Part shown: positions 1,047 through 18,502 of the stretch, one piece after another
How the letters are laid out: each line of letters begins with the position of its first letter
Numbering within the stretch: position 1 is the first letter of the stretch
Notes under the pieces: generated by a model
What the model was told of the DNA's origin: nothing
What the model saw: the letters and a program-made list of their open reading frames with translations, nothing else
Database searches by the model: none
Program-made: the position numbers and the translations under genes
From: an uncultured archaeon
GTDB lineage: Archaea; Aenigmatarchaeota; Aenigmatarchaeia; CAZXUR01
DNA: 43,034 nucleotides
Assembly (NCBI GenBank): GCA_964644245.1
Contig: CAZXUR010000007.1
Location: forward strand, 1 to 43,034
Reading direction: 5' to 3'

Positions 1047-4000
1047 CTAATACTTGATTACACCCCTCCAGGTGTCAGTCGAACAGCAGGCGTATGGGAT
1101 GTATTCGGAAGAGTCTTCCTCTACACACGTCCCGCTGTTGTCAACTTCCTCATAGTAGCAGTGCTGGGCAGAAGGCGACCAAACCGATGTCTCTGTGTCA
1201 TCCGGCTGGAGATTCACCCCTGAAGGCGCGTCGTCGGTGTTGCAAGCGCTGGGAAGAGCCTCGCATTCGGTTGTCCCTGAGTTCCAGGTCAGGCCTGAAC
1301 AACAGCTGTCCGCATCCACCGCATACTCACCCTCTTGCGCACAGTTCGCACTGCACTCGAAGGAATCGCCTGAATTGACCTTCATGCAGTTATTCTCACA
1401 ATTGGCATCGTTTTCACAATCTGACGTGCTGGTACAGGGCGAAGCCCCGCAGACTCCCGTTGTCACCACATAGTCTGCCGTATCACTGCCAGAGCCTGTT
1501 GCACTCGCTGCTGTTACTGTGAATGTATAGGTACCGTCGGCAGCACCGGCATCAGAAGTGACCGACAGAGTAGACGAGTCTGAAGCACCCGGGTCAAGAT
1601 TTGTTATCGGGTCTATATCAAAAGCACTAGACCAACCGCCCGGAAGTCCTGATACGTCTAAATCAAAGTCAGATGAACCACAGGCAGCGTTGTCGTTGTT
1701 GGTCACCGTGACCGTATAATCAAGGGTGTTCCCAGCGTTCCCGCTCTGTGAAGAGGGGGAAACATCAACAGTCGGGTCTGCCCGGACGCAGTCCTGCACA
1801 CATCCTATATTCGTTACATCGAATCCTGTGTACCCATTACCGCCGTTGATTGAGTCGTCCGTGTGCCAGCTAATAGTACCTGATTCTCCGCCAGTGGCGT
1901 CAGTGCCTGTCCACGTGCCTGAGTGTCTGCTACCACTTATGTCCCAGTAATCGTTTATTGGTTCCGTATCGCCTGTAGAGTCCACTTCCATGGAAGACCC
2001 GGAAGGACAGGTACATGTAATCGAACATTCCATGTCGTTCCCGTATTCTGACTGACTTATGCCTACGTCCACTGTGTTGTCCCCGACCGTAAGACCAGAA
2101 CAGTCCCAGGCAGGACATCCTGGTGAGTATTTTAGGTATAAGGTGTAGGAGTTATCACCATTTACGTTGATGAGTCTGGAACTTGGTTTTGAAGAATCTC
2201 CGGTTTGTGAGTAGTCGTCTTTGCTTGCAGATATTACTGCGTCATCCATGTTTCCCACGTTGAAAGTCGCAACACCGGAACTGCTTGTTGTGTCCGATTT
2301 ATCCACGCCCATAGAGTTCTGAGTCATTTTGACTGTTGCTGAATCAATCAAGGCATCGGTATCATCGTCACCATCTTCACGCACAGTCACTGTAATTGTG
2401 TTCTCCCCCGGATTGCCACAAGGAGAACATGGACCTGAGGTTACGTCAATTGGCTGATATAATGCGGTGTATACCGCGTCTTCTGAAATGGTCTGTGTTG
2501 TCTGTAGATTGGTAGTAAGACTGCTCCCGTCCTTCTCCCATCTGCAGAACTGCATGTTGTTCCAGTTGTTCCAAGTGAAGCCATCGCTTGCGGTCAACGT
2601 CAGGTCGGAGTTCAGGGGTACGTCTATGGTGAATTCTGTGAAACCGGTCTGTGTGTTCCCTCCATCTATGTTGTAGTCGATGGAAACGCCTGACATGGTT
2701 TCTCCAGTAGACACTTCTGCGTTAACAGTCGCTGTTCTCAGTTCTTCAACCACGTAATCTGCGGTACCGCTTCCGCTGTAGGTCGGGTCTTCCTCTTTTT
2801 CAGCGGTTACAGTAAATGTGTATGGCCCTCCGGTCGCGTCCGAAGGAGAGGTCACGTCTATAGTAGTTTCCGCGGAGCTAGCTTCATCGACAGTCAACGG
2901 GTCTGTTGCAAATACGCCCGACCAACCGGCTTCAGGCGGGGTGAAGGTCAAGTCAAACGAAGACGCGTCGCACGCTTCATTGTCATTGTTGGCCACCCTG
3001 ACCGTATAAGTGATGGTGTCACCTGGGTTTCCCGTGTCTGTGTCCGGAGACACAGAAACAGTCGGATTATTTTCCTCGCAGTTACAAAAACCGAAACATC
3101 CAGTCGACTGGACGGATTGTTGGTTGTTGACGTTGTCCCTGGAATGGTAACGGACGTAACATGTGCTCGCACAACTCCGTTCTATGGGATCTAAATAAGC
3201 ATCAGAAGGAGTGCATGTATCCGAATTGTCCCAGCAGTACAAAGTCTGGGCAACACCACTACCACCGTCATCTGGATCGAGAGTCACTTTATAATCCCCT
3301 CCCCCCAAGTCTTCCACTGTATGCGATGTCGTGGGGTCGCGGTTGTCATGTCTTACATAGAACACGCATCCTGAGGTGGACGTATGATCCACATAATCGT
3401 AAACGGTAGCATACTCAGTGGAGGAAGACGTGTCCGAATTGTCCCAGTTGTATTCGTGTGAACAAGGGTTAGAAGTGTATTCATCGCCTGAGGATGTGGC
3501 ATAAGGGAAATTAACTTTTTGTACACCCACGTCATCGTCTGCAGACACACTCACTTCGTAACTTCCCGTACTGTCACTGTTGTAATAAATACGATTGTTT
3601 GGGTTCACGTATCCGTAACTGGAATCCGGTGACTCTGAAATAGACACGGAAGTACAGGACGGGTCCCCGTTGTCTGATTGGATTTCCTCTGTCTCCTCGT
3701 TTGAGACTTTGTCTCCGTCATCGACCCGGCAGTAGATAGTATGTCTGTTGGAGTCAGTCCATGGAGCAGAGAAAGTGCAGGAAGGGTCATCACTTTCATA
3801 ATCTCCGGTGCATAAGTCGCTCGCGCCAGAGGAAGTCCCGCAAAGAATTTTCAAATAATTGTTTTCAGGGTCAGAAGAACTAGCGGTTACAGTCACCGTT
3901 GTACCATCTTTCACGTAGGTTAATCCTCCTTCCTGGTAGGCAGAGGACGTGGAAATGGATGAGAGGCTGGGCGCACTGTTCGAGCAGCTGACGCCGCTCC

Positions 4001-5780
4001 TGTCAGAGCATAAGTTCTCGTCGCTCGAGTCCTGTACTTGGCATCTGAGGTCTTTGCTTCCGCTGGAACTCACATCGGATGATGAATGACTGAAAGGAGA
4101 ACCGGTACTATCGTCACTGACAGACTCGTCCGGACCGTCCTCATCTATGATTGCATAGGCGTGGTCTCCACCACCCCACGAACAATCCATAGTCACAGAA
4201 TATTCAAAGTAAGGATATCCGTTGTAGACACAGCTTGTATCGGTTACTGAAGCACTACACGAGGTACAACAGCATACACCCGACTCTTCGTTCGTACAAT
4301 AGTAATCGCCGTCAGACTCATACGTCTCTCCCGAACCATCGCAGGAAGATTGGCAGGAGGCGCTGTCGTGCCCGGCACATGCCTGTCCAGACGCAGTCGT
4401 ACACTTCTTGTGTATGCTTGGTGAACAGCTCACATAGTCGTTTGCTTCCCCACAGTCGTTGTCGTTGGAAAAGCCAGAACCGAAACACCTGATTTGCCAA
4501 GAATGGGGGTCAGAATCGGGTGGAGTTACTGAATATGTATCCGAATGCCACACACAATCTTGGTAGTCCGTTCCGTACCTACAGTCTGATAAAGAACTTC
4601 CGTCTCTGTATATGGACCTGACTTCATAACTGTAAGGGCTTGCTGTCCCCAAGAATTCGTAGTCTATGTTAAAAGAATCCCCGAAATACACATCTGAAGG
4701 GCATGACGTCAGTTGCACTTCACACTCATGGTTGTCGCAACAGTTCAAATCCTTGTCACAGTCCGAAGATGTGTCATAGCATTGTGGTGTAGCGGCACAA
4801 CAGTAGTCCAGAGACGAATCGCATTCGATGCCGCCACCTGCTTCCGGGTCACCGCAGTAGCAGGGCAAGTTTGTATTCGAACCGCATGAAGGGTCACACT
4901 CACAGTCGTATCGGCAGACGTCTGCTTCTGTATCCGCATAGCACGTGGATTCCCTTGCACAGCAGAATTCACCAGAAGAACATGTATCTGAGCTTGATAT
5001 AGAACTACCGCACCAACATTTTTCTGATACGTCAGATGCACAAGCCTCTGAACTGCATTCTGGGATACAGTCAGTGCCGTCCCATTTGTAATCTTCATCG
5101 CAATAAAAATACCAACATGTATCATCAGAGCTTGGATAGTTGTTTAAATTGTTTACTGAGCTGGAAGATACCCCATTTGATTTCCCTTTATAAGGATCAT
5201 CTGTTGGGTCACCACATTCAGCTAGAACAGCTGATCCCAAATCAGGATCAGATGGGGCATTTGAAGGAATGCACTTTGAAGAGTCGCAAATACAACCTTC
5301 TATACCACCATCAAGTGATCCTCTACCTGGGTTTGGATCGTAATCACAGCTCTCCCACCAATGACAGGGTTCTCCGTCTATCTGATATCTGTAGTCGTAA
5401 ATAGGCATATAATCATTGCCCAGAGTATCACAACCTCCGCATGATGTGCTGCTATCAGCTGTGTAACTACCAGGTGCACATTTGGTGCAGTCTGCCATCT
5501 CCGGCACTCCTGATATGTAAAGAGGTTTGTAGTAGCAATAACGGGAACCAGAAGAAGGATATACGATAGCAGGAGGAACACCGGGCGGTGAGCCTATTTT
5601 TTGTGTCTGGCAGTCTTCCTCGGCGAGAGATCCACTTTCTATATATGAACTGTCATAAAGGCAGTAATCAGATATAGAACTACAGCAAGCCTCGACACCT
5701 TGGGCATGGACACTAGGAATCGTCAGGATGATCAAGCTGAAAATTAAAAACAATACTCTCAGTTCTTCTTCAATCTTCAT
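1047..5780 (-). CDS. Large secreted Cys-rich multidomain surface protein (Ig-like/NEW3-like repeats, CUB-like domain)
   Basis: 1577-aa ORF with a signal peptide (...PSVHA), many Cys-rich modules and two related PTVxVSP...TYTVxVxNND...YTFTVTA domains; rich in Ser/Asp/Thr. Confidence 0.85.
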   Translation of the reverse strand: MKIEEELRVLFLIFSLIILTIPSVHAQGVEACCSSISDYCLYDSSYIESGSLAEEDCQTQKIGSPPGVPPAIVYPSSGSRYCYYKPLYISGVPEMADCTKCAPGSYTADSSTSCGGCDTLGNDYMPIYDYRYQIDGEPCHWWESCDYDPNPGRGSLDGGIEGCICDSSKCIPSNAPSDPDLGSAVLAECGDPTDDPYKGKSNGVSSSSVNNLNNYPSSDDTCWYFYCDEDYKWDGTDCIPECSSEACASDVSEKCWCGSSISSSDTCSSGEFCCARESTCYADTEADVCRYDCECDPSCGSNTNLPCYCGDPEAGGGIECDSSLDYCCAATPQCYDTSSDCDKDLNCCDNHECEVQLTSCPSDVYFGDSFNIDYEFLGTASPYSYEVRSIYRDGSSLSDCRYGTDYQDCVWHSDTYSVTPPDSDPHSWQIRCFGSGFSNDNDCGEANDYVSCSPSIHKKCTTASGQACAGHDSASCQSSCDGSGETYESDGDYYCTNEESGVCCCTSCSASVTDTSCVYNGYPYFEYSVTMDCSWGGGDHAYAIIDEDGPDESVSDDSTGSPFSHSSSDVSSSGSKDLRCQVQDSSDENLCSDRSGVSCSNSAPSLSSISTSSAYQEGGLTYVKDGTTVTVTASSSDPENNYLKILCGTSSGASDLCTGDYESDDPSCTFSAPWTDSNRHTIYCRVDDGDKVSNEETEEIQSDNGDPSCTSVSISESPDSSYGYVNPNNRIYYNSDSTGSYEVSVSADDDVGVQKVNFPYATSSGDEYTSNPCSHEYNWDNSDTSSSTEYATVYDYVDHTSTSGCVFYVRHDNRDPTTSHTVEDLGGGDYKVTLDPDDGGSGVAQTLYCWDNSDTCTPSDAYLDPIERSCASTCYVRYHSRDNVNNQQSVQSTGCFGFCNCEENNPTVSVSPDTDTGNPGDTITYTVRVANNDNEACDASSFDLTFTPPEAGWSGVFATDPLTVDEASSAETTIDVTSPSDATGGPYTFTVTAEKEEDPTYSGSGTADYVVEELRTATVNAEVSTGETMSGVSIDYNIDGGNTQTGFTEFTIDVPLNSDLTLTASDGFTWNNWNNMQFCRWEKDGSSLTTNLQTTQTISEDAVYTALYQPIDVTSGPCSPCGNPGENTITVTVREDGDDDTDALIDSATVKMTQNSMGVDKSDTTSSSGVATFNVGNMDDAVISASKDDYSQTGDSSKPSSRLINVNGDNSYTLYLKYSPGCPAWDCSGLTVGDNTVDVGISQSEYGNDMECSITCTCPSGSSMEVDSTGDTEPINDYWDISGSRHSGTWTGTDATGGESGTISWHTDDSINGGNGYTGFDVTNIGCVQDCVRADPTVDVSPSSQSGNAGNTLDYTVTVTNNDNAACGSSDFDLDVSGLPGGWSSAFDIDPITNLDPGASDSSTLSVTSDAGAADGTYTFTVTAASATGSGSDTADYVVTTGVCGASPCTSTSDCENDANCENNCMKVNSGDSFECSANCAQEGEYAVDADSCCSGLTWNSGTTECEALPSACNTDDAPSGVNLQPDDTETSVWSPSAQHCYYEEVDNSGTCVEEDSSEYIPYACCSTDTWRGVIKY

Positions 5781-5812
5781 AATCTATTTTTCTCTCCCTT
5801 TATATAAATAGC

Positions 5813-7399
5813 TTAAGATTCTGTAGTTTCTATAAGATTTATCCAATTTTTTACTAGCCACTCAGGTTGGGTTGTGTTATATGTTCCTTTTTCTTGTGCC
5901 AATTTATATACATCAATATCCCTATCTGGATAATAAGAGCCATCCCATTTTGCCCATCTATCTGGTCTTAAATCACCGTCGTCATCAAATTCATAATCTT
6001 CGACTTCTTCGTAGTACCATCCAGTTCTAAAAAGGTCGGGTTTTCCATCTCCTGTAGTATCGTACCAACCACCACCTTTTGGTGGTTCATCAGAAATTGA
6101 CCACTTTTCATATTTTTCATCCATATTTTTATCCAAAGCAGATGCTCCCAGTCCATAGCTCTTAACATGTTTTTCATCCCATTTACCATCTTCATCTTTG
6201 TCAAGGAAAACGAAATTTATATCCTTATCATCAACGTATTTTCTTCTTGTTATTGAATTAATTTTTCCATTGCTTTCATAATCTCCAACCGTCAATATAG
6301 GTTTCCCATCTTCATAGGCATTCCACAATTGTTTCGTGTTCATTTCACCGTCATATTTGGGTTTGGTTACCTTCAGATAATATTGTTCCCACCGATCCCC
6401 TATAAGACTTCCTATTTTCATTGTCCTCTCAATAAGTTCATCTGTTGTAGCATTTCTTTCTTCCTCTACTCTTATATCCTGTGTTCCATCTTCGTCTACA
6501 TCAAACCCCCACCAACTTTCTTTATAATTAGTGCCTTGGTATTTCATTACAGGCTCCGCTCCCAAATCCTTTGCCGTTGCCTTATGATAGTCAACGAATT
6601 CGTCTACTGACCTGTTCAAATTCACATCTACGTCAGAAACGGCCAATGGTAATGTATATGTTATTTCTCTCGACTCTCCGGGTTGCATATCCTCCAGACG
6701 CCATACTAAAAGACCCATATCATCAACCTTGATAGAAGGTTCCAGAGATGAAGTCACGTTTCCAAAGTATCTTCTATATTTTTTAGGCACGATTTGCATT
6801 GCCTGTATTTCTTTAACATTTTCAGTTGGATTTTCTGCTGTTATTTTTCCTTCCAAGAAATAATCCCCGTCTTTGCTCAAAATCGCAATGTCTCTGTATT
6901 CCTTACTCGGGTAAGGCACGTTTGATAAATCTTGTGGGTACTCGTAAAACATCCCGGTTTCATTTAATTTCAATACATTGTTTCCTTTCTTGTATTCAGC
7001 GGAAGTTACGGACCCGTCCGAATCGTGTTCCAGCCGAAGTTCCGCATCCCTGACACCGTCTTTGTCTAAGTCTAGTATGAATCTATCTCTTATACCATCT
7101 TCATCCATATCCATCTTCTCAAGAGCTTTGTACTTAGATGGACCATCTCCGCCGTCACCATCAAGCAAATCGTCAAACCACCCCTGCTTGTAACCGTGAT
7201 AACCCAAAGCTCCTATGGCAGCAATGACACCGGCAGCAATCCCTCCATAAATCAGTTTTCTCGCTGTAGTTCCGCCCTTTTTGTCCTCTAAGAAGTCGCT
7301 CCTGAAATTAGGTGTTTCTTGGAAAACGAAATCGTCTCTTAAATCTTCTATCCTTTTGCCTTTCTCCCATTCATCTATCCTTTCATCGAGTGTGGTCAT
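5813..7399 (-). CDS. Membrane-anchored protein with multiple DxDxDG Ca-binding loops
   Basis: Single N-terminal TM segment (LIYGGIAAGVIAAIGALGY); DMDEDGIRD, DLDKDGVRD, DVDEDGTQD, DKDEDGKWD and DTTGDGKPD motifs. Confidence 0.75.
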   Translation of the reverse strand: MTTLDERIDEWEKGKRIEDLRDDFVFQETPNFRSDFLEDKKGGTTARKLIYGGIAAGVIAAIGALGYHGYKQGWFDDLLDGDGGDGPSKYKALEKMDMDEDGIRDRFILDLDKDGVRDAELRLEHDSDGSVTSAEYKKGNNVLKLNETGMFYEYPQDLSNVPYPSKEYRDIAILSKDGDYFLEGKITAENPTENVKEIQAMQIVPKKYRRYFGNVTSSLEPSIKVDDMGLLVWRLEDMQPGESREITYTLPLAVSDVDVNLNRSVDEFVDYHKATAKDLGAEPVMKYQGTNYKESWWGFDVDEDGTQDIRVEEERNATTDELIERTMKIGSLIGDRWEQYYLKVTKPKYDGEMNTKQLWNAYEDGKPILTVGDYESNGKINSITRRKYVDDKDINFVFLDKDEDGKWDEKHVKSYGLGASALDKNMDEKYEKWSISDEPPKGGGWYDTTGDGKPDLFRTGWYYEEVEDYEFDDDGDLRPDRWAKWDGSYYPDRDIDVYKLAQEKGTYNTTQPEWLVKNWINLIETTES

Positions 7400-7432
7400 A
7401 CTATTAGCTATTAGTAGAAATGCTTAAAAGGA

Positions 7433-7795
7433 TTATTTTATGGACTGGATGCACTCTTCTCTTGTCTCGTCTCCCCTTATGTCTTCGCAGAGGCTCGAAT
7501 CACCGGAGAAATAGGCGTCACAGTAAAGCTGGGCATCGTATACAATCAATTCCCCGCAAATGCTCTCGTCGTTTTCCTGAATCGCTAAATCAACCTTACA
7601 AAGGTCTTTCTTCCTTCCAGATTCAAAGGAGTTACAATATTCCATGGTCAATACTTCTGTTACAGTCGTGGTTGTGGTCCCGGCTATAGTGGTGGAAGTG
7701 GTGGTTGTTATAGTGGGAGGTTGGTTCAAAAAAAGATACCAGAAACCCACAATCAGGAAGACTACGGTCAATGTTGCCAAAACCCATTTAAGCAT
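7433..7795 (-). CDS. Small membrane-anchored protein with Thr linker and Cys repeats
   Basis: N-terminal TM, poly-Thr stalk, repeated C-x(9-10)-C-x3-A-x4-D-x2-C units; paralog of the adjacent gene. Confidence 0.75.
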   Translation of the reverse strand: MLKWVLATLTVVFLIVGFWYLFLNQPPTITTTTSTTIAGTTTTTVTEVLTMEYCNSFESGRKKDLCKVDLAIQENDESICGELIVYDAQLYCDAYFSGDSSLCEDIRGDETREECIQSIK

Positions 7796-8074
7796 TCAAC
7801 CCACCTTTGTCTTGCAGATTTCCTTAGTCTCCACGTTTTCTATTTCATCGCAATAACTTACATCCCCTTCCACTAAGGCCTTGTCGTAGTAGCATCTATC
7901 CTTCTGAACACCGGTCAGGGCTTCGCAGTCGTCGTATTTGGTGTCGACCGTGGCCACAATGGTGGTAGTAGTGGTGATGGTTGTGGTCGGGGCTTCAGTG
8001 GTGGTAGTTGTTTCAGGCAACTGTCCAACACACCCGCTGACTAATATTAACATAATTATGAGTGCCTTCTTCAT
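7796..8074 (-). CDS. Putative lipoprotein with Thr linker and Cys repeat
   Basis: Likely start MKKALIIMLILVSGC (lipobox-like), poly-Thr, then DRCYYDKALVEGDVSYCDEI. Confidence 0.75.
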   Translation of the reverse strand: MKKALIIMLILVSGCVGQLPETTTTTEAPTTTITTTTTIVATVDTKYDDCEALTGVQKDRCYYDKALVEGDVSYCDEIENVETKEICKTKVG

Positions 8075-8078
8075 AATC

Positions 8079-8993
8079 TTATTTCGTACTGCTCCCATAT
8101 ATACTTTTTGTTCTCGGTAAATCTGAAATACCGAACATGTCTACCGTCAGGGAGTTTATTCGGGTCAAAAGCAGGAAGGTCAAACCGGCGGTCAGGGAGA
8201 AGCCCAGGAACTGGAAGATTAAGGCGCTGCCACCCTCTGCTATTCCCAGACCTGACGGGGACACGGGGACGAACATGATGGTCGTCAGCAACGGTTGGAG
8301 GAACAGTGCGGTTAGGAAACCTATGGGAAGGTTGAGGGATGATGCTACGAAGTACCACTGGAGGCCTAAAAGGAGCCAGCTGAGGAGGTCGATGAGGATG
8401 AAATAGAGGTAGAGTCTCTTGGACAGGGCCTTCCTACACGCCTGCATCGCGGAAACATACTTGTGGATTTTTCCCGGTATCTTCTTGAGGACGAGAATGG
8501 GCAACTGTGTGTAGAGTGTGAGGAAAATGGCTGCAGCTAAGATAAGGATAAACACGACTGACAGGACGACCAGGTTCATTATCCTTGTAATCAGAAGCGA
8601 GAAATAAATCAAGGACAGCAAAATCAGGGCAACTTTCAAGACAAGTGTGATTCCTTGGAAAAGTATCAGATAACCGGCCTTTTCTGAGACGCTGCTCCGT
8701 GACTTCCTGGCTGCCGAGTAGGCCGTATAAAGATAACCGCTCCTGGCAGGGGTGACGTATGTGTAGAACATGCCTCCCAAGTGGGAGAAGAACAGCTCCT
8801 TGAAGGGCAAATGGTAGACCAGAGACAACTTGTAAGTGGCGACCAATTCGTTGACCAGGAATACTAACAACGCGGCCACGAAATAGATTGGGTTGACAGT
8901 TATCAGGAGGGAGGCGACTTCTGATGGGCCAAGACTCAAAATCAGGGCGGCTAGGATGACCAGGCCTATGACGACTGACAGGGCCCTTTTCAT
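8079..8993 (-). CDS. Flippase-like membrane protein (lysylphosphatidylglycerol synthase TM / UPF0104 family)
   Basis: About 8 TM segments; family motifs TPARSG and PVSPSGLGIAEG...LLTR; divergent from a GT2 gene. Confidence 0.85.
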   Translation of the reverse strand: MKRALSVVIGLVILAALILSLGPSEVASLLITVNPIYFVAALLVFLVNELVATYKLSLVYHLPFKELFFSHLGGMFYTYVTPARSGYLYTAYSAARKSRSSVSEKAGYLILFQGITLVLKVALILLSLIYFSLLITRIMNLVVLSVVFILILAAAIFLTLYTQLPILVLKKIPGKIHKYVSAMQACRKALSKRLYLYFILIDLLSWLLLGLQWYFVASSLNLPIGFLTALFLQPLLTTIMFVPVSPSGLGIAEGGSALIFQFLGFSLTAGLTFLLLTRINSLTVDMFGISDLPRTKSIYGSSTK

Positions 8994-9046
8994 AGTCCTA
9001 ATAAGCTTATAAGTATATATTAGTTAATTGACTTATGCTGTCGGTC
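8985..9046 (+). repeat. 62-bp direct repeat, left copy
   Basis: CCTTTTCATAGTCCTAATAAGCTTATAAGTATATATTAGTTAATTGACTTATGCTGTCGGTC matches 11608..11669 at 61/62 positions. Confidence 0.95.
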
Positions 9047-9157
9047 TGATTATAGACGGGACTGACAAATTATTGGACGAAGAGAATAGTCATTGGGTTA
9101 ATTTAACATCAAGATAATTATTTAAAGATGTTTATGGAAGTATTTATGGTTGTTGGT

Positions 9158-9304
9158 ATGCTAAGAAAGTTTTTGGAGGAAGAGTTTGTGTTTTTTTCAG
9201 AACCTGAAGAAATAGAATCAAGTTACACAATGAAGATATGTACAAATACCTGTGCATGCGCATCTTGCTGGCCTTACAAGTCAGAATATAAGAAAAGAGA
9301 GTAG
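9158..9304 (+). CDS. Putative RiPP precursor peptide (48 aa, acidic leader, CxxxCxCxxC core)
   Basis: Manual translation gives MLRKFLEEEFVFFSEPEEIESSYTMKICTNTCACASCWPYKSEYKKRE. It ends 6 bp before the rSAM/SPASM ATG. Alternative in-frame ATGs lie at 9128, 9134 and 9146. Confidence 0.75.
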   Translation: MLRKFLEEEFVFFSEPEEIESSYTMKICTNTCACASCWPYKSEYKKRE

Positions 9305-9310
9305 TAGAAA

Positions 9311-11089
9311 ATGAGATTCTCTCCGTTTATATATTTTCAGGAGAATCCAGCTGGGAAATATGTTTTCTGTTTCAATCCTATAACTTTAAAGAAGATGTAT
9401 TGTTCTCCTACCTCAATGAAAAAAATAAGAAAGGATGTTAAAGAGGGAAAGAAAACTGCCACAGTAAAAAAGTTAATCAGCAATGGTTTCGTTTTTGAGG
9501 ATGAAGACAAAAATGAAGAGCTCCTGCAAAATGAGTCAGAAAAATTAAGACCATCCATAAACTTTTCCTATATCATGCCCACCAACGATTGCAACTTTGC
9601 GTGCAAGTATTGCTATATAAAGAAAAAGAAAGAACATCTTTCTAAAACAGATGCAGACAAAACACTCAAGGTTTTATATGAAAATTTTAGACAACGCGGA
9701 GAGATAAGCTTTTATGGCGGTGAGCCACTCCTTGCAAAGAAAATGCTTTTCTATATAATTAAAAAAGCTAGTAAATGGGATGATAAAAAAATTCGTTTTT
9801 CTATGGTAACCAATGGGTCTTTGGTCTCGAATTCAGTAGCCAAAAAGCTGAAGAAATTTGATGTCAATGTTTCTGTTTCTTTGGATGGATGGAAAGATTT
9901 GAACGATCAAAAAAGGGTCAAATCAGACGGCTCCTCTACTTTTAATGAGGCTTTGAGAGGTTTTTTCAATCTGCAGGATAGAGGGCTCAATCCCGGAATT
10001 TCCTGTACACTTGGTGACCATAACTTAAAACATTTAGAAGAAGTAGTGGATTTTTTTCATTCGATTGGAGTCACAAGGATTGGTTTCAACCCACCAATAA
10101 CAAAGAAATCAGCAAATACAAGACTAATTACTCTTGCCCTTTACAAAGCTTTCAAGAAGGCAAAATCGTATGGAATCTATGAAGATAGAGTCATGAGGCG
10201 TTATATTCCGTTTTGTAAAGAAGAATTTTGCCTTCAAGAGTGTGTCGGAAATGGCCATCAAATTGCCATCTCACCAGATGGTAAAGCAGCACCTTGCCAG
10301 GCCTTTTTTAATTATCGGAAACTCAACCAGATACCTTTAGATTCGGTTGGGAAAGCTGAAAATAACGACCTGTGGAAAAAATGGGCTAAGAGAAGTCCCA
10401 TTACAATGGAAGAGTGTAAAGGATGCGAACTTGTGGGTGTTTGTGGAGGTGGCTGTGCCTATAATGCATACCTCCAAAGCGGCAATATATCTAAACCGGA
10501 CAAACAACATTGCAAATGGGTAAAACCTATGTTTAGATTATTCCTTATACCGCATTACTTCCATGAGAAAGTCATGCCCGAAATTAAATATAAAGAATTC
10601 GAACTTTCAGATGGTGAGATAGTCAGAGAAATGGCAAAAAACCAAATAAAAGAGGAAAAAGAAAGGTTAAAAACTGCGAACAAGAAGGACAAAAAGATGA
10701 TTAAAGAGCAGATAAAGGAAATTAAGGGCGAATTAGGAGAATGGGACAAAGTCGTGACGGGCTGGTGTACATTAAACCTCGCGAAATTCGGTGTTGCACT
10801 GATGGCCCTCAGCGATAAAAAAGTGGTTGCCTTTTGTTCGATTGCGCCTCTCAAAGAGTATTTTGAAAAGGGAGAATTTGGTGTAGCTGAGATGGGCACG
10901 GGTGTGCTCAACGGATATGAGGGAAAAGTTGCGGAAAATCTAATCAGGCGTGCCTTGCAGAGGGCCAGAGAGATAAATATACATACAATTTATGTGGAAG
11001 ACGGAGAACCGTCTAAGAGGTTGAGAAAAGCTTTCAAAAGAGCGAACTTCAGAAAAACTGGAAAAACCATGAAGGTAAAACTTTCATGA
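9311..11089 (+). CDS. Radical SAM/SPASM peptide maturase with C-terminal GNAT-like domain
   Basis: CNFACKYC, YGGEP, TNG and SLDG motifs; SPASM CKGCELVGVCGGGC; N-terminal ~75-aa extension in the RRE position; C-terminal VVAFCSI...AEMGTGV...LIRRALQRARE resembles a GNAT fold. Confidence 0.9.
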   Translation: MRFSPFIYFQENPAGKYVFCFNPITLKKMYCSPTSMKKIRKDVKEGKKTATVKKLISNGFVFEDEDKNEELLQNESEKLRPSINFSYIMPTNDCNFACKYCYIKKKKEHLSKTDADKTLKVLYENFRQRGEISFYGGEPLLAKKMLFYIIKKASKWDDKKIRFSMVTNGSLVSNSVAKKLKKFDVNVSVSLDGWKDLNDQKRVKSDGSSTFNEALRGFFNLQDRGLNPGISCTLGDHNLKHLEEVVDFFHSIGVTRIGFNPPITKKSANTRLITLALYKAFKKAKSYGIYEDRVMRRYIPFCKEEFCLQECVGNGHQIAISPDGKAAPCQAFFNYRKLNQIPLDSVGKAENNDLWKKWAKRSPITMEECKGCELVGVCGGGCAYNAYLQSGNISKPDKQHCKWVKPMFRLFLIPHYFHEKVMPEIKYKEFELSDGEIVREMAKNQIKEEKERLKTANKKDKKMIKEQIKEIKGELGEWDKVVTGWCTLNLAKFGVALMALSDKKVVAFCSIAPLKEYFEKGEFGVAEMGTGVLNGYEGKVAENLIRRALQRAREINIHTIYVEDGEPSKRLRKAFKRANFRKTGKTMKVKLS

Positions 11090-11155
11090 CCCGGTATTCT
11101 ATTTTGGTTCAGAACTTTGTAAATCCTTATAAGCATTTCGCATATAGTAGTTGAT

Positions 11156-11482
11156 ATGAGCAGTGAAAGCAGCGAACTTCGTGCTCCCTATATAGAAGTA
11201 CCGGGCAGATATAAGCACTTGACATCTGTCTATGGAGAACGTCTTCCCGAGATGTTTACACCTCGCTACACAAAAGGGGAAAAGAGACGTTTTTTCGAGA
11301 GTGCAATAGAAGACGGCGGTTATTTCTTCTACTCTGTCGGAGATGAAGATGTTCGTGGAAAGAAATTCAAAGTCGTCTCGGTCGATGAGGATAACGTAAC
11401 CCTCAGTTTGGATGACTTGGTTGTAAAGAAGAGAATAGAGGAAGCCTACGACAGTGGAATAATCGTGGGCGAGGATTTCTGA
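11156..11482 (+). CDS. Hypothetical protein (108 aa)
   Basis: ATG-initiated ORF with protein-like composition, co-oriented with the rSAM gene; no motif recognised. Confidence 0.6.
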   Translation: MSSESSELRAPYIEVPGRYKHLTSVYGERLPEMFTPRYTKGEKRRFFESAIEDGGYFFYSVGDEDVRGKKFKVVSVDEDNVTLSLDDLVVKKRIEEAYDSGIIVGEDF

Positions 11483-11607
11483 ACCTCTCATCATTCAAGA
11501 TCGTTTTGTTTTAGTTCTCTCAAATCACTCCTGCTTTCACTTTGGGACGAACCTTTTAAGAAGTATTATCATTGTTCCGAAATAGCCAGGCTTTGTCCGG
11601 ACAAGAG

Positions 11608-11669
11608 CCTTTTCATACTCCTAATAAGCTTATAAGTATATATTAGTTAATTGACTTATGCTGTCGGTC
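11608..11669 (+). repeat. 62-bp direct repeat, right copy
   Basis: Matches 8985..9046 with one mismatch (G8995 vs C11618); contains the GT2 start codon. Confidence 0.95.
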
Positions 11670-12329
11670 GTAGTGCCTGTGTACAACGAAGCAGACGTGA
11701 TAGAGAAGAACGTGGACAGGCTCAGGAAACACCTTAAGGGAAGGTCTGAGATAGTACTGGGAGAGAACGGCTCTAAGGACGGTTCTGCGGAAATCTGCGA
11801 TCGGCTTGCGGGCGAATACAAGGATGTCAGGACCATCCACACCAAAAAGGGCCTTGGCAGGGCTCTGAAGGCGTTAATAGAGAAGGCGGAGGGCGAGAAG
11901 GTCGTTTACATGCCTGCGGACCTGGCTGTGGACGTGAAGTTCATCGACCAGGCGGAGAGACTCTTGGACGAGGTGGATATAGTGGTCGGTTCTAAGCGCA
12001 TGGAAGGGGCGGTGGACGACCGGGTTTACGCAAGGAGGTTTGCCAGTTTTATCTTCAACTCTCTGGTCAATTTATTTCTCAATCTAGGTCTCAAGGACTC
12101 CCAGTGCACCAAGGGATTCAGGAAGTCAAAGGTGGAGGGACTCTTGAACAAGACCAGTGACAGGGGCTTCTTCTTTGAAGTGGAACTGCTTTACTACGCG
12201 AAGAAAAAAGGACTGAGGATGGAAGAAGTACCGGTGGTGGTGAGGGACAAAGGCAGGAGTTCCGTCCGCATAGTCAGGGATTCGTTAAAACTTCTTAAGA
12301 AGCTTCTTGGCTTTTCTGTGAGTAAATAG
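11658..12329 (+). CDS. GT2 glycosyltransferase (dolichol-phosphate sugar synthase-like)
   Basis: SVVVPVYNE, NGSKDGS, GLGRA, ADL, VVGSKR, DSQC and FEVELL motifs. Confidence 0.9.
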   Translation: MLSVVVPVYNEADVIEKNVDRLRKHLKGRSEIVLGENGSKDGSAEICDRLAGEYKDVRTIHTKKGLGRALKALIEKAEGEKVVYMPADLAVDVKFIDQAERLLDEVDIVVGSKRMEGAVDDRVYARRFASFIFNSLVNLFLNLGLKDSQCTKGFRKSKVEGLLNKTSDRGFFFEVELLYYAKKKGLRMEEVPVVVRDKGRSSVRIVRDSLKLLKKLLGFSVSK

Positions 12330-15817: not shown

Positions 15818-16050
15818 CCCTTAGAAGAAAAAAATGTCTTTGTCTCTAACTTGCAGCTTCTCTGCTGTTACTTTTTCTTTCGACCTTGCAAGTAGTGGGG
15901 GGGAGATAAAGGTGGTTTCGATTAAAGATACGATGAAAAGATAAGCTAGAAGTAATATCTTATTTATGAATAAGGTGAGGATTCATATGCATCCAGATAG
16001 AAAATCTTTTTTTAAACATTTCCTAGACGCAATTCAAAGTTATATGTAAA

Positions 16051-16656
16051 TTAAGATTTTGATGTAATTTCTAACAAGTTGACTATTTTTTCAAATATTT
16101 CATTTACGTCTTCCTTCCCGTTAATTAAAAATACATTTTCCATTTATTTTTGTATCTATCAAATATACATTTGTATAAGTTACCTTCTTTTCTAAAATTT
16201 TCTTTTTTAAAAAATATTGTATTCCTCAACCTACGGTTTTTAGTTAATCTTTTCTTCCTTTCATGCAGCGTTGCGTCAAAGACAAAGGTTACGTCTGGTT
16301 CCATACAGAAAAAATTTGTTTTTTCTATTAATTTTAATGGAATTCCTTGAATTTGTTGATATACACAACTTGAAAGAAGATATCTATCAGCGATTACGAT
16401 ATTACCTTCTTCTAACTTCTCTTTGATATATCTTATATGAGCAAATCTATCTGCCGCATGTAAATATAAAAGTATAAAAGAAGAAACAAGGTTATCTCTA
16501 AAAGAATATTTGCCAATTACTTTTTTAATATGGCTCTTTTGTATAGACTACAGAAACACGGCGCTCAATTAAATATTTTTTAAGTAATTTTGCTTGTGTC
16601 GTTTTACCGCTGCCGTGAGGACCTTCAAAAACTATAAACTTAACATTTTTCTTCAT
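16051..16656 (-). pseudogene. tmk: Thymidylate kinase family gene with two frameshifts
   Basis: Manual translation: MKKNVKFIVFEGPHGSGKTTQ...TKEPY then stop at 16525-16527. A second frame continues with LHAADR, IADRYLLSSCVYQ and EPD, stopping at 16125-16127. A third segment NVFLINGKEDVNEIFEKI ends at TAA 16051-16053. Confidence 0.85.
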
Positions 16657-16657
16657 G

Positions 16658-17560
16658 TTAACATACCATTAAAGTTTTTTCTATATACTTTTTAACATGG
16701 TTTTCTTTGTATGGATATTTTATCCAGATTTTTTCGATACTGTCATTTAATATATTTCCTATGTAATCAACACAAGACTCTTTTGACCAAACCGGTGAAG
16801 CGACAACATCGCCGTTTGGATGAATGAGAAGAGCATGACCTTCCTTTATTTTATTCCAGTCAGTTAAAGTAATCCTGATATTCCAACCCATTTTATCTTT
16901 TTTATTTTTAAGTTCGTTGAATAATTTTTTAATTTCCAATGAAGACAATCTTTCTGATACAATGGTTTTTCCTCTCCCTTTTGGTATAGGACTAAGAATT
17001 TTTAGTTTTTTCGCACCAAACATATCTGCAATTTGCGCAACATAAGAAACATACTTTTTATTTTCTTCAAGAAGAACCATTACTATAGAAAAATCAATAC
17101 CTGCCTGTTTTAAACTCCACAAACCTTCTATAATTTTGTCATATGAGCCTCTTGTTTTATTATGAATTTTTCTAGGACCGTCAATTGTTACATCGACATA
17201 ATTAACGCATTCTGATAATTTTTTTGCAAGTTCTAAATCGATTTTAGTAGCATTACTAGCTACCGCCACAATGTCAAATTTGTTCTTACACATTTCCAAG
17301 ATGGATAACAAATCTTTTCTTAAAGTAGGTTCTCCGCCAGATATAATTATTCTTTTTACTCCTTCGAGATTTTTTATCATCTCCTTTAATTCTTTTATTG
17401 AGGAATCAGGCATAGATTTTGATTCACTGCAGTAAATACAATTGAGATTACATTTTCTGGTAATCTGTAAAGTAATTGACAAGGGATATTTTGGAATTAC
17501 TGCTTTTTTGTTTTCAGAGTGGAAATGCTGCTCCGTAAGGTTAAACCTTATTTTTTCCAT
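16658..17560 (-). CDS. Radical SAM protein lacking SPASM cysteines
   Basis: CNLNCIYC, SGGEP, SNAT and TIDG motifs; the C-terminal IHPNGDV...IGNILNDSIEKIW extension has no auxiliary-cluster Cys motif. Likely start MEKIRF at 17560. Confidence 0.88.
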   Translation of the reverse strand: MEKIRFNLTEQHFHSENKKAVIPKYPLSITLQITRKCNLNCIYCSESKSMPDSSIKELKEMIKNLEGVKRIIISGGEPTLRKDLLSILEMCKNKFDIVAVASNATKIDLELAKKLSECVNYVDVTIDGPRKIHNKTRGSYDKIIEGLWSLKQAGIDFSIVMVLLEENKKYVSYVAQIADMFGAKKLKILSPIPKGRGKTIVSERLSSLEIKKLFNELKNKKDKMGWNIRITLTDWNKIKEGHALLIHPNGDVVASPVWSKESCVDYIGNILNDSIEKIWIKYPYKENHVKKYIEKTLMVC

Positions 17561-18413
17561 TTTTCCCACCTTCAAAATCAAACAAATTTTTAGGCTTTGT
17601 TGGGATTTCGCCAAAATAATCTTTTGGCGATTCCCACACCTCTTTTAACCATTTTACATCCTCAATAGAATCAGGCGATTCCACAATAAATGTAAACTCT
17701 TTATAACCTAAATCCTGTAGGGTTGCAAAAAGATATGGCAACGGAGGATTAAATGACTTAGCAGAAATATGTCTGGTTTCATTTCCATTTTTGTATTCAA
17801 CCCCTCCTCCATGAAAATAGTTCGGTTTGTATCCAAGCTTTTCTTCAAAACTTTCTAGTACTTCTTTAAAATCTTCACAACTGTATGGATAATTCCCATT
17901 ATTTCTAGCATAGAAGTGAGACCAATCTATAACGGGTATTACTCTATCGTCATTAATCAGTTCCAACAATTTAATCAATTCATTCACCGTCCCTATTGCC
18001 TGTTGTTTCCCTGTGTTTTCAATACCCAATTTTCCTTTTTTTACATTTGACTTATCCAAAGCTTCTTGAATAGCATTTACTATACCTTCTTTTAACTCAT
18101 TTATTTTTTTCCCACCATAAAATCCTAAATGAAATGTTGCTACATTTTTTAATTTTTCCGCAATTTTTAATCCAGAAACCAAATAGCTAACGTTTTTCTT
18201 CCTTTTTGAATTACCTAGATTTATCCAGAATGGCAAATGACATGATAACGCAACTTTACATTTTTTTGACTGAGTAATTATATTTTCTGAAATGTTTTGT
18301 GGGATACCATAAGCAAAACCCATTTCGTAAGCATCTATGTTTTTTTGGGCGAGTAAATCTATATATTCCGGCAAGTCCTTTGCGTATTTTCTGGCAATTC
18401 CAAATTCTGGCAT
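17541..18413 (-). CDS. Endonuclease IV / AP endonuclease 2-like TIM-barrel protein
   Basis: SCHLPFWINL, FHLGFY, IENTGK, GTVNE, IDWSHFYAR, RH and IVESP match the archaeal Nfo-like metal-ligand pattern. Confidence 0.85.
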   Translation of the reverse strand: MPEFGIARKYAKDLPEYIDLLAQKNIDAYEMGFAYGIPQNISENIITQSKKCKVALSCHLPFWINLGNSKRKKNVSYLVSGLKIAEKLKNVATFHLGFYGGKKINELKEGIVNAIQEALDKSNVKKGKLGIENTGKQQAIGTVNELIKLLELINDDRVIPVIDWSHFYARNNGNYPYSCEDFKEVLESFEEKLGYKPNYFHGGGVEYKNGNETRHISAKSFNPPLPYLFATLQDLGYKEFTFIVESPDSIEDVKWLKEVWESPKDYFGEIPTKPKNLFDFEGGKNGKNKV

Positions 18414-18486
18414 TTACATTCATGTTAGATAACCTATTAAACTTTATAACTCTATATACGGCAGTAAATTTACAAAACAAAGCTCT

Positions 18487-18502
18487 CCTCAGAAGGCTGA
18501 GG
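18487..18502 (-). terminator. Possible hairpin terminator downstream of fbp
   Basis: CCTCAG-AAGG-CTGAGG stem-loop, followed on the minus strand by TTTGTTTT; marks the GC/AT boundary of the islet. Confidence 0.35.

Follow-up and report, generated by a model that had tools for sequence, protein, structure and literature searches.

A low-GC cassette with a putative RiPP maturase between two copies of a divergent promoter in a DPANN-type archaeon

The locus and its host

On contig CAZXUR010000007.1 (assembly GCA_964644245.1) of an uncultured archaeon of the Aenigmatarchaeota, a gene for a flippase-like membrane protein and a gene for a family-2 glycosyltransferase (GT2) point away from each other, and between them sits a cassette of three genes with a copy of the same short segment, holding the predicted promoters and the start codons of the two host genes, at each of its borders. 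The window, by which is meant the whole stretch of DNA analysed (43,034 nucleotides, nt), is the entire contig C7 of a 754-kb genome assembled in 14 contigs and 86% complete, and the genome collection has no other genome of its order. The host, taken here to be of the DPANN type, is an archaeon with a reduced genome, as judged from its promoter architecture and from a gene content that includes a fructose-bisphosphatase (FBPase) of family PF01950 (class V-type), RadA (299 bits) and a weak match to a class III signal peptide. An earlier reading of the window, made from its sequence only, took the arrangement for an insertion of foreign DNA that had duplicated a whole bidirectional promoter together with both start codons, and this is supported both by the anatomy of the repeat and by the G+C content (GC) of the insert.

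The features are collected in Table 1. The insert is foreign in composition: its GC lies within the lowest 1.8% of 2,789 genome windows of equal size (mean 0.477, standard deviation 0.032), while the genes that flank it are at 0.50-0.52. Both host genes are intact, as that sequence-only reading had held, since each is full length against its Pfam model. The flippase matches PF03706 over profile positions 1-296 of 302 (E 3.7e-27), with a further match to TIGR00374, 'flippase-like domain', and the glycosyltransferase matches PF00535 (Glycos_transf_2) from its residue 3 over profile positions 1-161 of 168 (E 4.6e-21). The cassette is taken to be present once per chromosome.

Table 1. Features at the insertion, in window coordinates (aa, amino acids; ATG, start codon; BRE, transcription factor B recognition element; ORF, open reading frame; RiPP, ribosomally synthesised and post-translationally modified peptide; SAM, S-adenosylmethionine; AF2, AlphaFold 2)
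Feature	Position	Strand	Basis or remark
Flippase-like membrane protein (MprF/LPG_synthase_TM family), 304 aa, intact host gene	8079..8993	-	PF03706, TIGR00374
Left repeat copy	8977..9046		True flippase start ATG 8993 (minus) and GT2 stub
GT2 stub MLSV-stop, five codons, left border of cassette	9035..9049	+	Translation
Inserted cassette, 2,553 nt, GC 0.382, three genes all plus	9047..11599	+	Composition, ORFs
Cassette BRE/TATA-like box AGATAATTATTTAAAGA, predicted start ~9148	9112..9128	+	Promoter model
Putative RiPP precursor, 58 aa (52 aa from ATG 9146)	9128..9304	+	Position upstream of maturase
Radical SAM/SPASM maturase-like enzyme with C-terminal GNAT, 592 aa (gene caller version 557 aa)	9311..11089	+	PF04055, PF00583
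Orphan protein orf108, 108 aa	11156..11482	+	No homologue; AF2
Flippase-like stub MKRLLSGQSLAISEQ-stop, right border of cassette	11569..11616	-	Translation
Right repeat copy	11600..11669		True GT2 start ATG 11658; diverged bases at left edge; drives GT2
Family-2 glycosyltransferase (GT2), 223 aa, intact host gene	11658..12329	+	PF00535

A duplicated two-way promoter

A repeat finder delimits the two border copies as a direct repeat of 70 nt with a spacing of 2623 nt and 66 of 70 positions identical (94%). The earlier reading had described a 62-bp repeat, identical at 61 positions, that covers the start codons of both divergent genes, and side-by-side comparison bears this out: between 8985-9046 and 11608-11669 the sole mismatch is a G at 8995 against a C at 11618. 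The longest exact match is 51 nt (8996-9046 and 11619-11669), which is far beyond chance for an assembly of 753,875 bases, and the 70-mer is found in that assembly at only these two places. On the right the similarity between the copies ends abruptly at 9046/9047; on the left it fades at about 8977, and leftward of that point homology was sought and some 17 of 40 aligned columns match, the level of random sequence. The core of the repeat is partly palindromic (CTAATAAGC/GCTTATAAG).

What has been duplicated is the 41-nt spacer (8994-9034) with 17 nt of the flippase coding sequence on one side and 12 nt of that of the glycosyltransferase on the other. The stubs that such a duplication would leave behind, of the glycosyltransferase at the left copy and of a flippase-like protein at the right one, had been noted before and are confirmed by translation. 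The promoters of the genome have a regular architecture against which the spacer can be read. Counted from the ATG, the upstream regions of 663 long ORFs are rich in A from -34 to -31 and in T and A from -29 to -22. Octamers made up entirely of A and T peak at -29 (119 ORFs) and -28 (110 ORFs), where positions farther upstream than -42 have 5-19, and a smaller group of ORFs has Shine-Dalgarno-like motifs at -12 to -9. The TATA box thus stands some 26 nt ahead of the start codon, which implies that many genes are leaderless. In a position weight model built from 658 genes, this locus being excluded, the flippase start (8993, minus) scores 5.49 and the glycosyltransferase start in the left copy (9035, plus) 5.36; both values are in the top 10% or so of the 658 genes and are reached by 0.2% of background positions. 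The 41-nt spacer holds two boxes back to back, TTATAA on the plus strand and TAATATAT on the minus strand. Because the repeat is a complete two-way promoter with both gene starts, each host gene survives the insertion, and the geometry confirms the earlier statement that the promoter halves left spare are both directed into the cargo.

The four mismatches of the repeat (8981, 8983, 8984 and 8995) all lie within the leftmost 22 of its 70 nt, at the outer edge of the right copy, which is where sequence of the incoming DNA would be expected. Under uniform mutation such clustering has a chance of (22/70)^4, about 0.01, and it points to an incoming copy that was homeologous rather than identical to the resident one, with the crossover in the identical part. 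This is one of the grounds for the account that we favour, though it is an even call whether that account is right: that a foreign RiPP cassette was integrated in the 41-nt divergent promoter, with a 70-nt target duplication, by homologous recombination of a circle that itself carried the promoter. The nearest competitor is a one-off illegitimate event in which a break in the promoter was repaired by capture of a foreign linear fragment, some 70 nt of the target being duplicated when widely staggered cuts were filled in or when replication switched template, either of which could serve, so that the repeats are no more than its scar. We consider this unlikely, though well worth keeping in view. 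Mismatches clustered at one edge of one copy speak against it, as a duplication made in situ would have started out identical.

A perfect 12-nt palindrome, TTGTCC|GGACAA at 11593-11604, is centred exactly where the cassette meets the right repeat, and with one bulge it can be extended to GGCTTTGTCC/GGACAAGAGCC. It could be a matter of chance, the signature of a repair event or the site of a protein. In the second of these roles it would suit capture of a fragment at a break.

The cargo

The cassette is tightly packed, with non-coding stretches of only 81, 66 and 117 nt and no pseudogene debris. Its DNA is unique in the genome, and a search for host-gene remnants within it (tblastn, E<=10) gave nothing beyond noise; an origin by duplication and later decay of host sequence was rejected on the lack of such remnants.

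We read the cargo, from its sequence features, as a new archaeal radical SAM RiPP cassette. The first gene would encode the substrate of the second, a role suggested by its position directly upstream. It has no family match in Pfam or NCBIfam searches, it ends 6 nt before the ORF of the maturase-like enzyme, and its C-terminal core, MKICTNTCACASCWPYKSEYKKRE, holds four cysteines within the last 22 residues. The second gene encodes a radical SAM enzyme (PF04055, E 1.3e-21, with PF13353 also matched) that has the CX3CX2C motif of the radical SAM core as CNFACKYC and a C-terminal GNAT domain (PF00583, 22.7 bits). Its SPASM domain scores 19.4 bits against PF13186, for which the cut-off is 21.5, while the CX2CX5CX3C motif CKGCELVGVCGGGC is present and is spanned by the alignments to NCBIfam SPASM maturases. 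None of the cut-offs of those families is reached, the scores being 169.8 of 400 for FibroRumin, 136.7 of 340 for PapB and 102 of 425 for SCIFF, with CbpB a further match below cut-off. The enzyme would probably be one that forms thioethers. The closest homologue among 5.8 billion proteins is 32% identical (P0002), and this is also the one protein of 120 homologues, among the matches listed, in which the fusion of radical SAM enzyme and GNAT recurs.

The third gene, orf108, is an orphan. A word-based search gave six candidates, of which one was confirmed, namely itself. With phmmer against 1.84 billion representatives five proteins came within E<=0.001, self included, and the rest matched over short stretches only: the best stretches are of about 22 residues in three of them (two being proteins of more than 1,400 aa) and of 49 residues in the other, a 600-aa protein. 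Residues ~40-108 are predicted to form a helix and a small five-stranded beta-barrel (AF2 pLDDT 66.8), for which structural matches with Z up to 7.0, a designed SH3 barrel and Hfq among them, are generic; the Atlas score of 0.79 is below lead level.

The sequence-only reading had also suggested that the cargo may borrow the host promoter. As far as position goes that stands as a possibility, the spare halves pointing inward, but it is not needed, since the cassette has a promoter-like box of its own. The box gives a score of 7.61 at ~9148, the highest of all positions from 8950 to 11720 on both strands, AT-rich DNA being apt to inflate such scores. On this prediction the cassette seems to bring its own promoter near the ATG at 9146, and initiation there would yield the 52-aa form of the precursor from a leaderless message.

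A cassette without a recombinase

That the cassette has no integrase or transposase, as stated in the earlier reading, holds in searches of its ORFs against Pfam and NCBIfam, and the rest of the 754 kb has little more to offer. The only trace of a tyrosine recombinase is a 31-residue C-terminal match to PF00589 in a 57-aa frame (C8:15078-15170), and the only TnpB-like one a match to a Cas12f1/TnpB-like zinc ribbon in a 140-aa frame (C8:36153-36344). No serine recombinase (Resolvase, PF00239) and no Cas1 were matched in the assembly, and the window has no tRNA and no Rfam family. The cassette lacks terminal inverted repeats, the best inverted match between its ends (14 nt, score 6.5) being noise, and at its 3′ end there is no attC-like fold (-9.4 kcal/mol as single-stranded DNA, z = -0.33 against 200 shuffles).

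Several known kinds of element were considered and set aside on these grounds. A transposon, insertion sequence or casposon is rejected on the lack of terminal inverted repeats, transposase and Cas1, and on a duplication that is 70 nt and not short; an integron gene cassette is rejected on the lack of a structured attC and of a whole tyrosine recombinase. For a site-specific element the direct repeats at the borders are present, and the integrase is lacking from the cassette, with no whole one in the genome. It could nevertheless be imagined that the cassette is an integrase-less relic or satellite, its repeats being the left and right attachment (att) sites of a tyrosine recombinase that has been lost or is supplied in trans by a virus, by a plasmid or from an unassembled part of the genome. 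The length of the repeat is within the 29-69 bp of the att sites of crenarchaeal integrated elements, for which intergenic targets are known (PMC6563490); relics with partial att sites and fragmented integrases are described for the tycheposon islands (bioRxiv 10.1101/2020.12.28.424599); and the 31-residue integrase fragment and the partly palindromic repeat core would suit such a history. The absence of an integrase from the cassette and of any whole one from 754 kb tells against it, as does the tight packing without debris, and we judge it improbable, more so than capture of a fragment at a break, which the want of a recombinase, of inverted ends and of an att-like structure favours. With RadA present and a whole integrase absent, it is homologous recombination that is favoured.

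Further loci of like anatomy

When the assembly was scanned for exact direct repeats, three further loci of like anatomy came to light, on contigs C2, C5 and C6. The first has a 100-nt repeat (98 of 100 identical; 3900-3999 and 5685-5784) that spans the start and promoter of a Wzx-type flippase gene (PF01943). Its insert of 1,685 nt (GC 0.37) holds a Methyltransf_24 gene, a deacetylase fragment and a truncated gene, the latter two being paralogues of two genes of the right flank, 56% (best segment) and 68% identical respectively. The repeat is far more alike than these duplicated coding parts, and an insert that carries diverged paralogues of the genes beside it suggests DNA from a related, homologous locus. 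The second has a 45-nt promoter-like repeat that includes an ATG (43 of 45 identical; 50409-50453 and 51189-51233) and lies directly behind a gene with an RMMBL domain; the insert (735 nt, GC 0.356) has two small genes, one for 115 aa without a family and one for 102 aa (DUF2283), and the ATG of the left copy starts the first of them. On C6 it is a gene end, ..CPELPGKYR-stop and variants, that is repeated: six direct copies, with motif starts at 951, 2445, 4379, 4937, 6957 and 8464, partition an AT-rich island into cassettes. The other radical SAM gene of SPASM type in the genome (C6:4996-6123; 23% identity to that of the cassette on C7) lies between the fourth and the fifth copy, which means that two RiPP-type cassettes of this genome are flanked by repeats.

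The repeats of the four loci, 30-100 nt long, are unrelated in sequence. Shared end motifs were looked for at three of the loci (C7, C2 and C6), in the repeats and at the ends of the cassettes, and two pairs with z of 3.6-3.9 and scores of 11-11.5 were treated as noise. That the repeat differs at each locus favours a process that is independent of sequence over one site-specific integrase, and it counts against a relic, as each of the four loci, without shared end motifs, would need an integrase specificity of its own. Recurrence is also hard on the one-off event, for at least four such loci in 754 kb call for a regular process, and so is the C2 insert with its diverged paralogues of its own flanking genes.

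A direct repeat on C10 (57 of 63 identical; 5559-5625 and 17800-17866) likewise has a promoter-like AT-rich core. Its copies are 12.2 kb apart with a host-like GC of 0.496 in the interval, the first of them just upstream of a RadA paralogue (C10:5982-6632), and the pair probably represents similar promoters rather than an insert.

Integrated form, sequencing runs and relatives

Public runs, here X1 to X4, were examined as k=31 contigs. At that k, which is less than the 51 nt common to the repeat copies, a chromosome with the cassette integrated and a free circle alongside an empty site give identical graphs, and X2, a sister sample of the same study, does give a path of flippase, core and glycosyltransferase. 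This lends some substance to the possibility that a free 2.6-kb circle with a promoter-like segment was wrongly joined to the chromosome at the repeat during assembly. Three pairs of contig ends (C5/C13, C4/C12 and C2/C10) overlap by exactly 55 nt, the gaps of the assembly being runs of 100 N, and this suggests that its final k was 55. With a k above the 51 nt of the core the repeat copies would not have been collapsed, and the path of the contig would rest on k-mers that span the core. Sequencing depth is alike in and around the cassette in two samples, with cassette contigs at 5.1-6.1 and flank contigs at 4.3 and 6.7 in X1, and cassette contigs at 4.4-6.2 and flank contigs at 4.3 and 4.2 in X2, which would be unusual for a small free replicon. 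The overlaps and the depths together argue that the integrated form is real, and we regard an artefact of assembly as very unlikely indeed, much more so than any other explanation considered here.

The path in X2 is a k=31 contig of 357 nt in which 8750-8995 is joined to 11619-11729, that is, flippase, one repeat copy and glycosyltransferase. In the same sample the junctions of the cassette are missing, its contigs beginning at 9038 and stopping at 11562, and as evidence of an empty site the single-copy join is ambiguous. Run X3 is from a different study, and there the cassette differs from the window at 11 of 1,166 aligned bases and the flippase flank at 2 of 171. A contig of X3 departs from the window at 11557, and for its 30-nt continuation no match was found in the genome itself when up to 3 mismatches were allowed; on inspection the continuation resembles a diverged form of that non-coding end, and it was not taken as a new context. 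Run X4 gave no contig matching the window. Since its depth and its divergence are those of its flanks, the cassette looks like a stable resident, and the sequence comparison suggests that it was already present in the common ancestor of these strains. This agreement with the flanks also fits a single capture of foreign DNA at a break.

X2 and X3 share two variants of the cassette relative to the window, T>C at 10417 and A>G at 10695, so at least two alleles of it circulate.

Among relatives an empty site was sought by DNA search, and none of 40 class-level relatives matched. A protein search with the flippase found a match in 12 of 201 genomes of the class, this genome included, the best non-self one being 39% identical. 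Of 12 non-self flippase loci six have a GT2 gene within 1.5 kb, and only in one, a distant paralogue (L016), is it head-to-head as at the present locus. Relatives within the class are thus too distant to serve as an empty site. The nearest flippase relative of all is a 302-aa protein of 75% identity (P0123), encoded on a contig of 2,387 nt. Scans of larger collections, from which entries for this genome or its nearest kin may be missing, gave 382 pattern matches to the flippase in metagenomes and 203 to the radical SAM enzyme in the genome collection, none of either being confirmed; a metagenome scan with P0002 gave 52 loci with distant radical SAM genes, 21-57% identical, that were not used, the contig of P0002 itself not being among them; and viral collections had no match to the radical SAM enzyme, to orf108 or to a 30-nt core of the repeat.

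A possible route of integration

In the account favoured here the cassette would have arrived as circular or circularised DNA that bore a slightly diverged copy of the promoter segment, and would have entered by a Campbell-type single crossover between this copy and that of the chromosome, within their 51 identical nt. The sequence-only reading had likewise taken the repeats for attL/attR-like scars of an integrated 2.6-kb circle that could excise, a view that is plausible and in part supported. The agent would more likely have been the RadA recombination machinery of the host than a site-specific integrase. Each border would by this means rebuild a complete promoter and gene start, leaving both host genes expressed, while the cargo may be expressed from its own promoter-like box, with the spare promoter halves perhaps adding read-in transcription.

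A number of points weigh against integration of a promoter-carrying circle. No circle was observed, and its junction, which would share the 51-nt core, is one that k=31 contigs cannot distinguish. The single-copy contig of X2 is the graph product expected at that k when both cassette junctions drop out at a depth of about 4, and a cassette depth equal to that of the flanks leaves little room in X2 for a subpopulation with an empty site. Cassette and flank are equally diverged in X3, which suggests inheritance together with the chromosome and no recent movement. No close copy of the cargo is present in anything searched (32% for the best relative of the radical SAM enzyme, none for orf108), which leaves transfer between genomes hypothetical, and a cargo with no close relative elsewhere and no sign of travel fits as well with one repair event. 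For insertion with long target duplication the mechanism is treated as open in PMC2853133, which also leaves room for such an event. A recombinase may lie in the part of the genome, 86% complete as assembled, that is missing. Finally, a Campbell crossover explains how such a structure spreads among relatives that have it and not how the target segment was first acquired.

DPANN genomes are tiny, and little is understood of how accessory genes enter them. Four loci at which AT-rich cassettes lie between duplicated gene ends or starts point to a regular means of adding genes that spares the neighbours, and the locus in the window is the cleanest case, with a young repeat (51 nt exact) over a whole two-way promoter. 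A wider idea, speculative and on balance doubtful, is that DPANN archaea gain and exchange small cassettes, those for RiPPs included, without any recombinase, a 45-100-bp copy of a host promoter or gene terminus on the circle being a portable docking sequence for homologous recombination. Were that so, each insertion would, through the complete leaderless promoters and start codons of the docking piece, rebuild the host genes and supply expression, much like an integron without an integrase, and the near-identical repeat together with the possible empty-site contig of X2 would make this locus the best place to catch the process.

Other low-GC DNA in the window

To the left of the flippase gene, 5813-8098 is low in GC (0.39-0.47) and its genes are without a family. 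They include a 528-aa ORF (5813-7399, minus) and a 100-aa ORF (7796-8098, minus), the latter with a hydrophobic N-terminus and a Thr-rich stretch, and the locus around the flippase looks like a variable region concerned with the cell surface. A second low-GC island at ~15,830-18,500 (0.22-0.35, against ~0.5 in its flanks) sits between a gene of the metallo-beta-lactamase fold and the FBPase gene, and has a radical SAM gene (16658-17614, minus) and one for a xylose-isomerase-like TIM barrel (17541-18413, minus). No long direct repeat flanks this island, the matches being just of 19 nt at 79%.

Comparison with known systems

Among peptide-modification systems the cassette resembles the radical SAM/SPASM clusters for thioether RiPPs (SCIFF, PapB-type ranthipeptides and FibroRumin) in having a small Cys-rich precursor directly upstream of an enzyme with the CX3CX2C motif and a SPASM-type cluster of cysteines. 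It differs from the named clusters in scoring far below the NCBIfam equivalog cut-offs, in the fusion to a GNAT domain and in its archaeal host, and it has no protease or exporter gene. An archaeal RiPP cassette with so unusual a radical SAM/SPASM-GNAT fusion is of interest in itself.

Among archaeal elements the closest in form are those integrated by tyrosine recombinases, together with the integrase-less relics of these (CIMEs). In the crenarchaeal examples att sites are of 29-69 bp and intergenic targets occur (PMC6563490); direct repeats of tens of bp, and a copy on the element that rebuilds the host function, are shared with the present case, and the arrays that arise by repeated use of one site bear comparison with contig C6. 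The target is different, a promoter with two 5′ ends here and not a tRNA gene or the 3′ end of a gene. The tycheposon islands of Prochlorococcus are alike in that small 'plug-in' modules flanked by repeated att fragments gather in a streamlined genome without classical transfer systems. Tycheposons encode a tyrosine recombinase and replication functions and use seven tRNA genes as targets (bioRxiv 10.1101/2020.12.28.424599), and the present cassette has none of these. A small island of E. coli, likewise flanked by repeats and without a recombinase of its own, is reported to excise by RecA-independent recombination between short direct repeats (PMC5426353); that loss was shown experimentally, and in a bacterium, whereas excision here is hypothetical.

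Were excision or circles to be shown, long target duplication would be extended to archaea and to other cargo, with a handle on its mechanism; were they not, the locus would amount to an insertion scar, neat but ordinary. In the literature searched, supplementary tables being outside that search, no account of cassettes of this kind was found for DPANN archaea. Insertion with long target duplication was reportedly described by Nobusato et al. in 2000 for bacterial restriction-modification units.

The insert of the window is 2,553 nt long and without any other mobile-element gene, and the duplication is of 70 nt, its target occurring in the genome at those two places and nowhere else. For restriction-modification units Furuta, Abe and Kobayashi (2010, PMC2853133) define such an insertion by a length of less than 20 kb without any other mobile element and by a target duplicated over more than 30 bp. 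The repeats of the bacterial cases run from 46 to more than 400 bp, and the mechanism is left open (PMC2853133). In anatomy the present locus agrees with them, with a small insert, an atypical GC, no mobility gene and a target otherwise unique, keeping in mind that the bacterial insertions are defined by comparison with genomes that have an empty site (PMC2853133). The differences are the archaeal host, the RiPP cargo and a target that is a bidirectional promoter with the starts of two genes. No archaeal restriction-modification case passed the screen of Furuta et al. (PMC2853133), and what is new at this locus is an archaeal host, a new cargo and a new kind of target for a known, mechanistically unexplained type of insertion.

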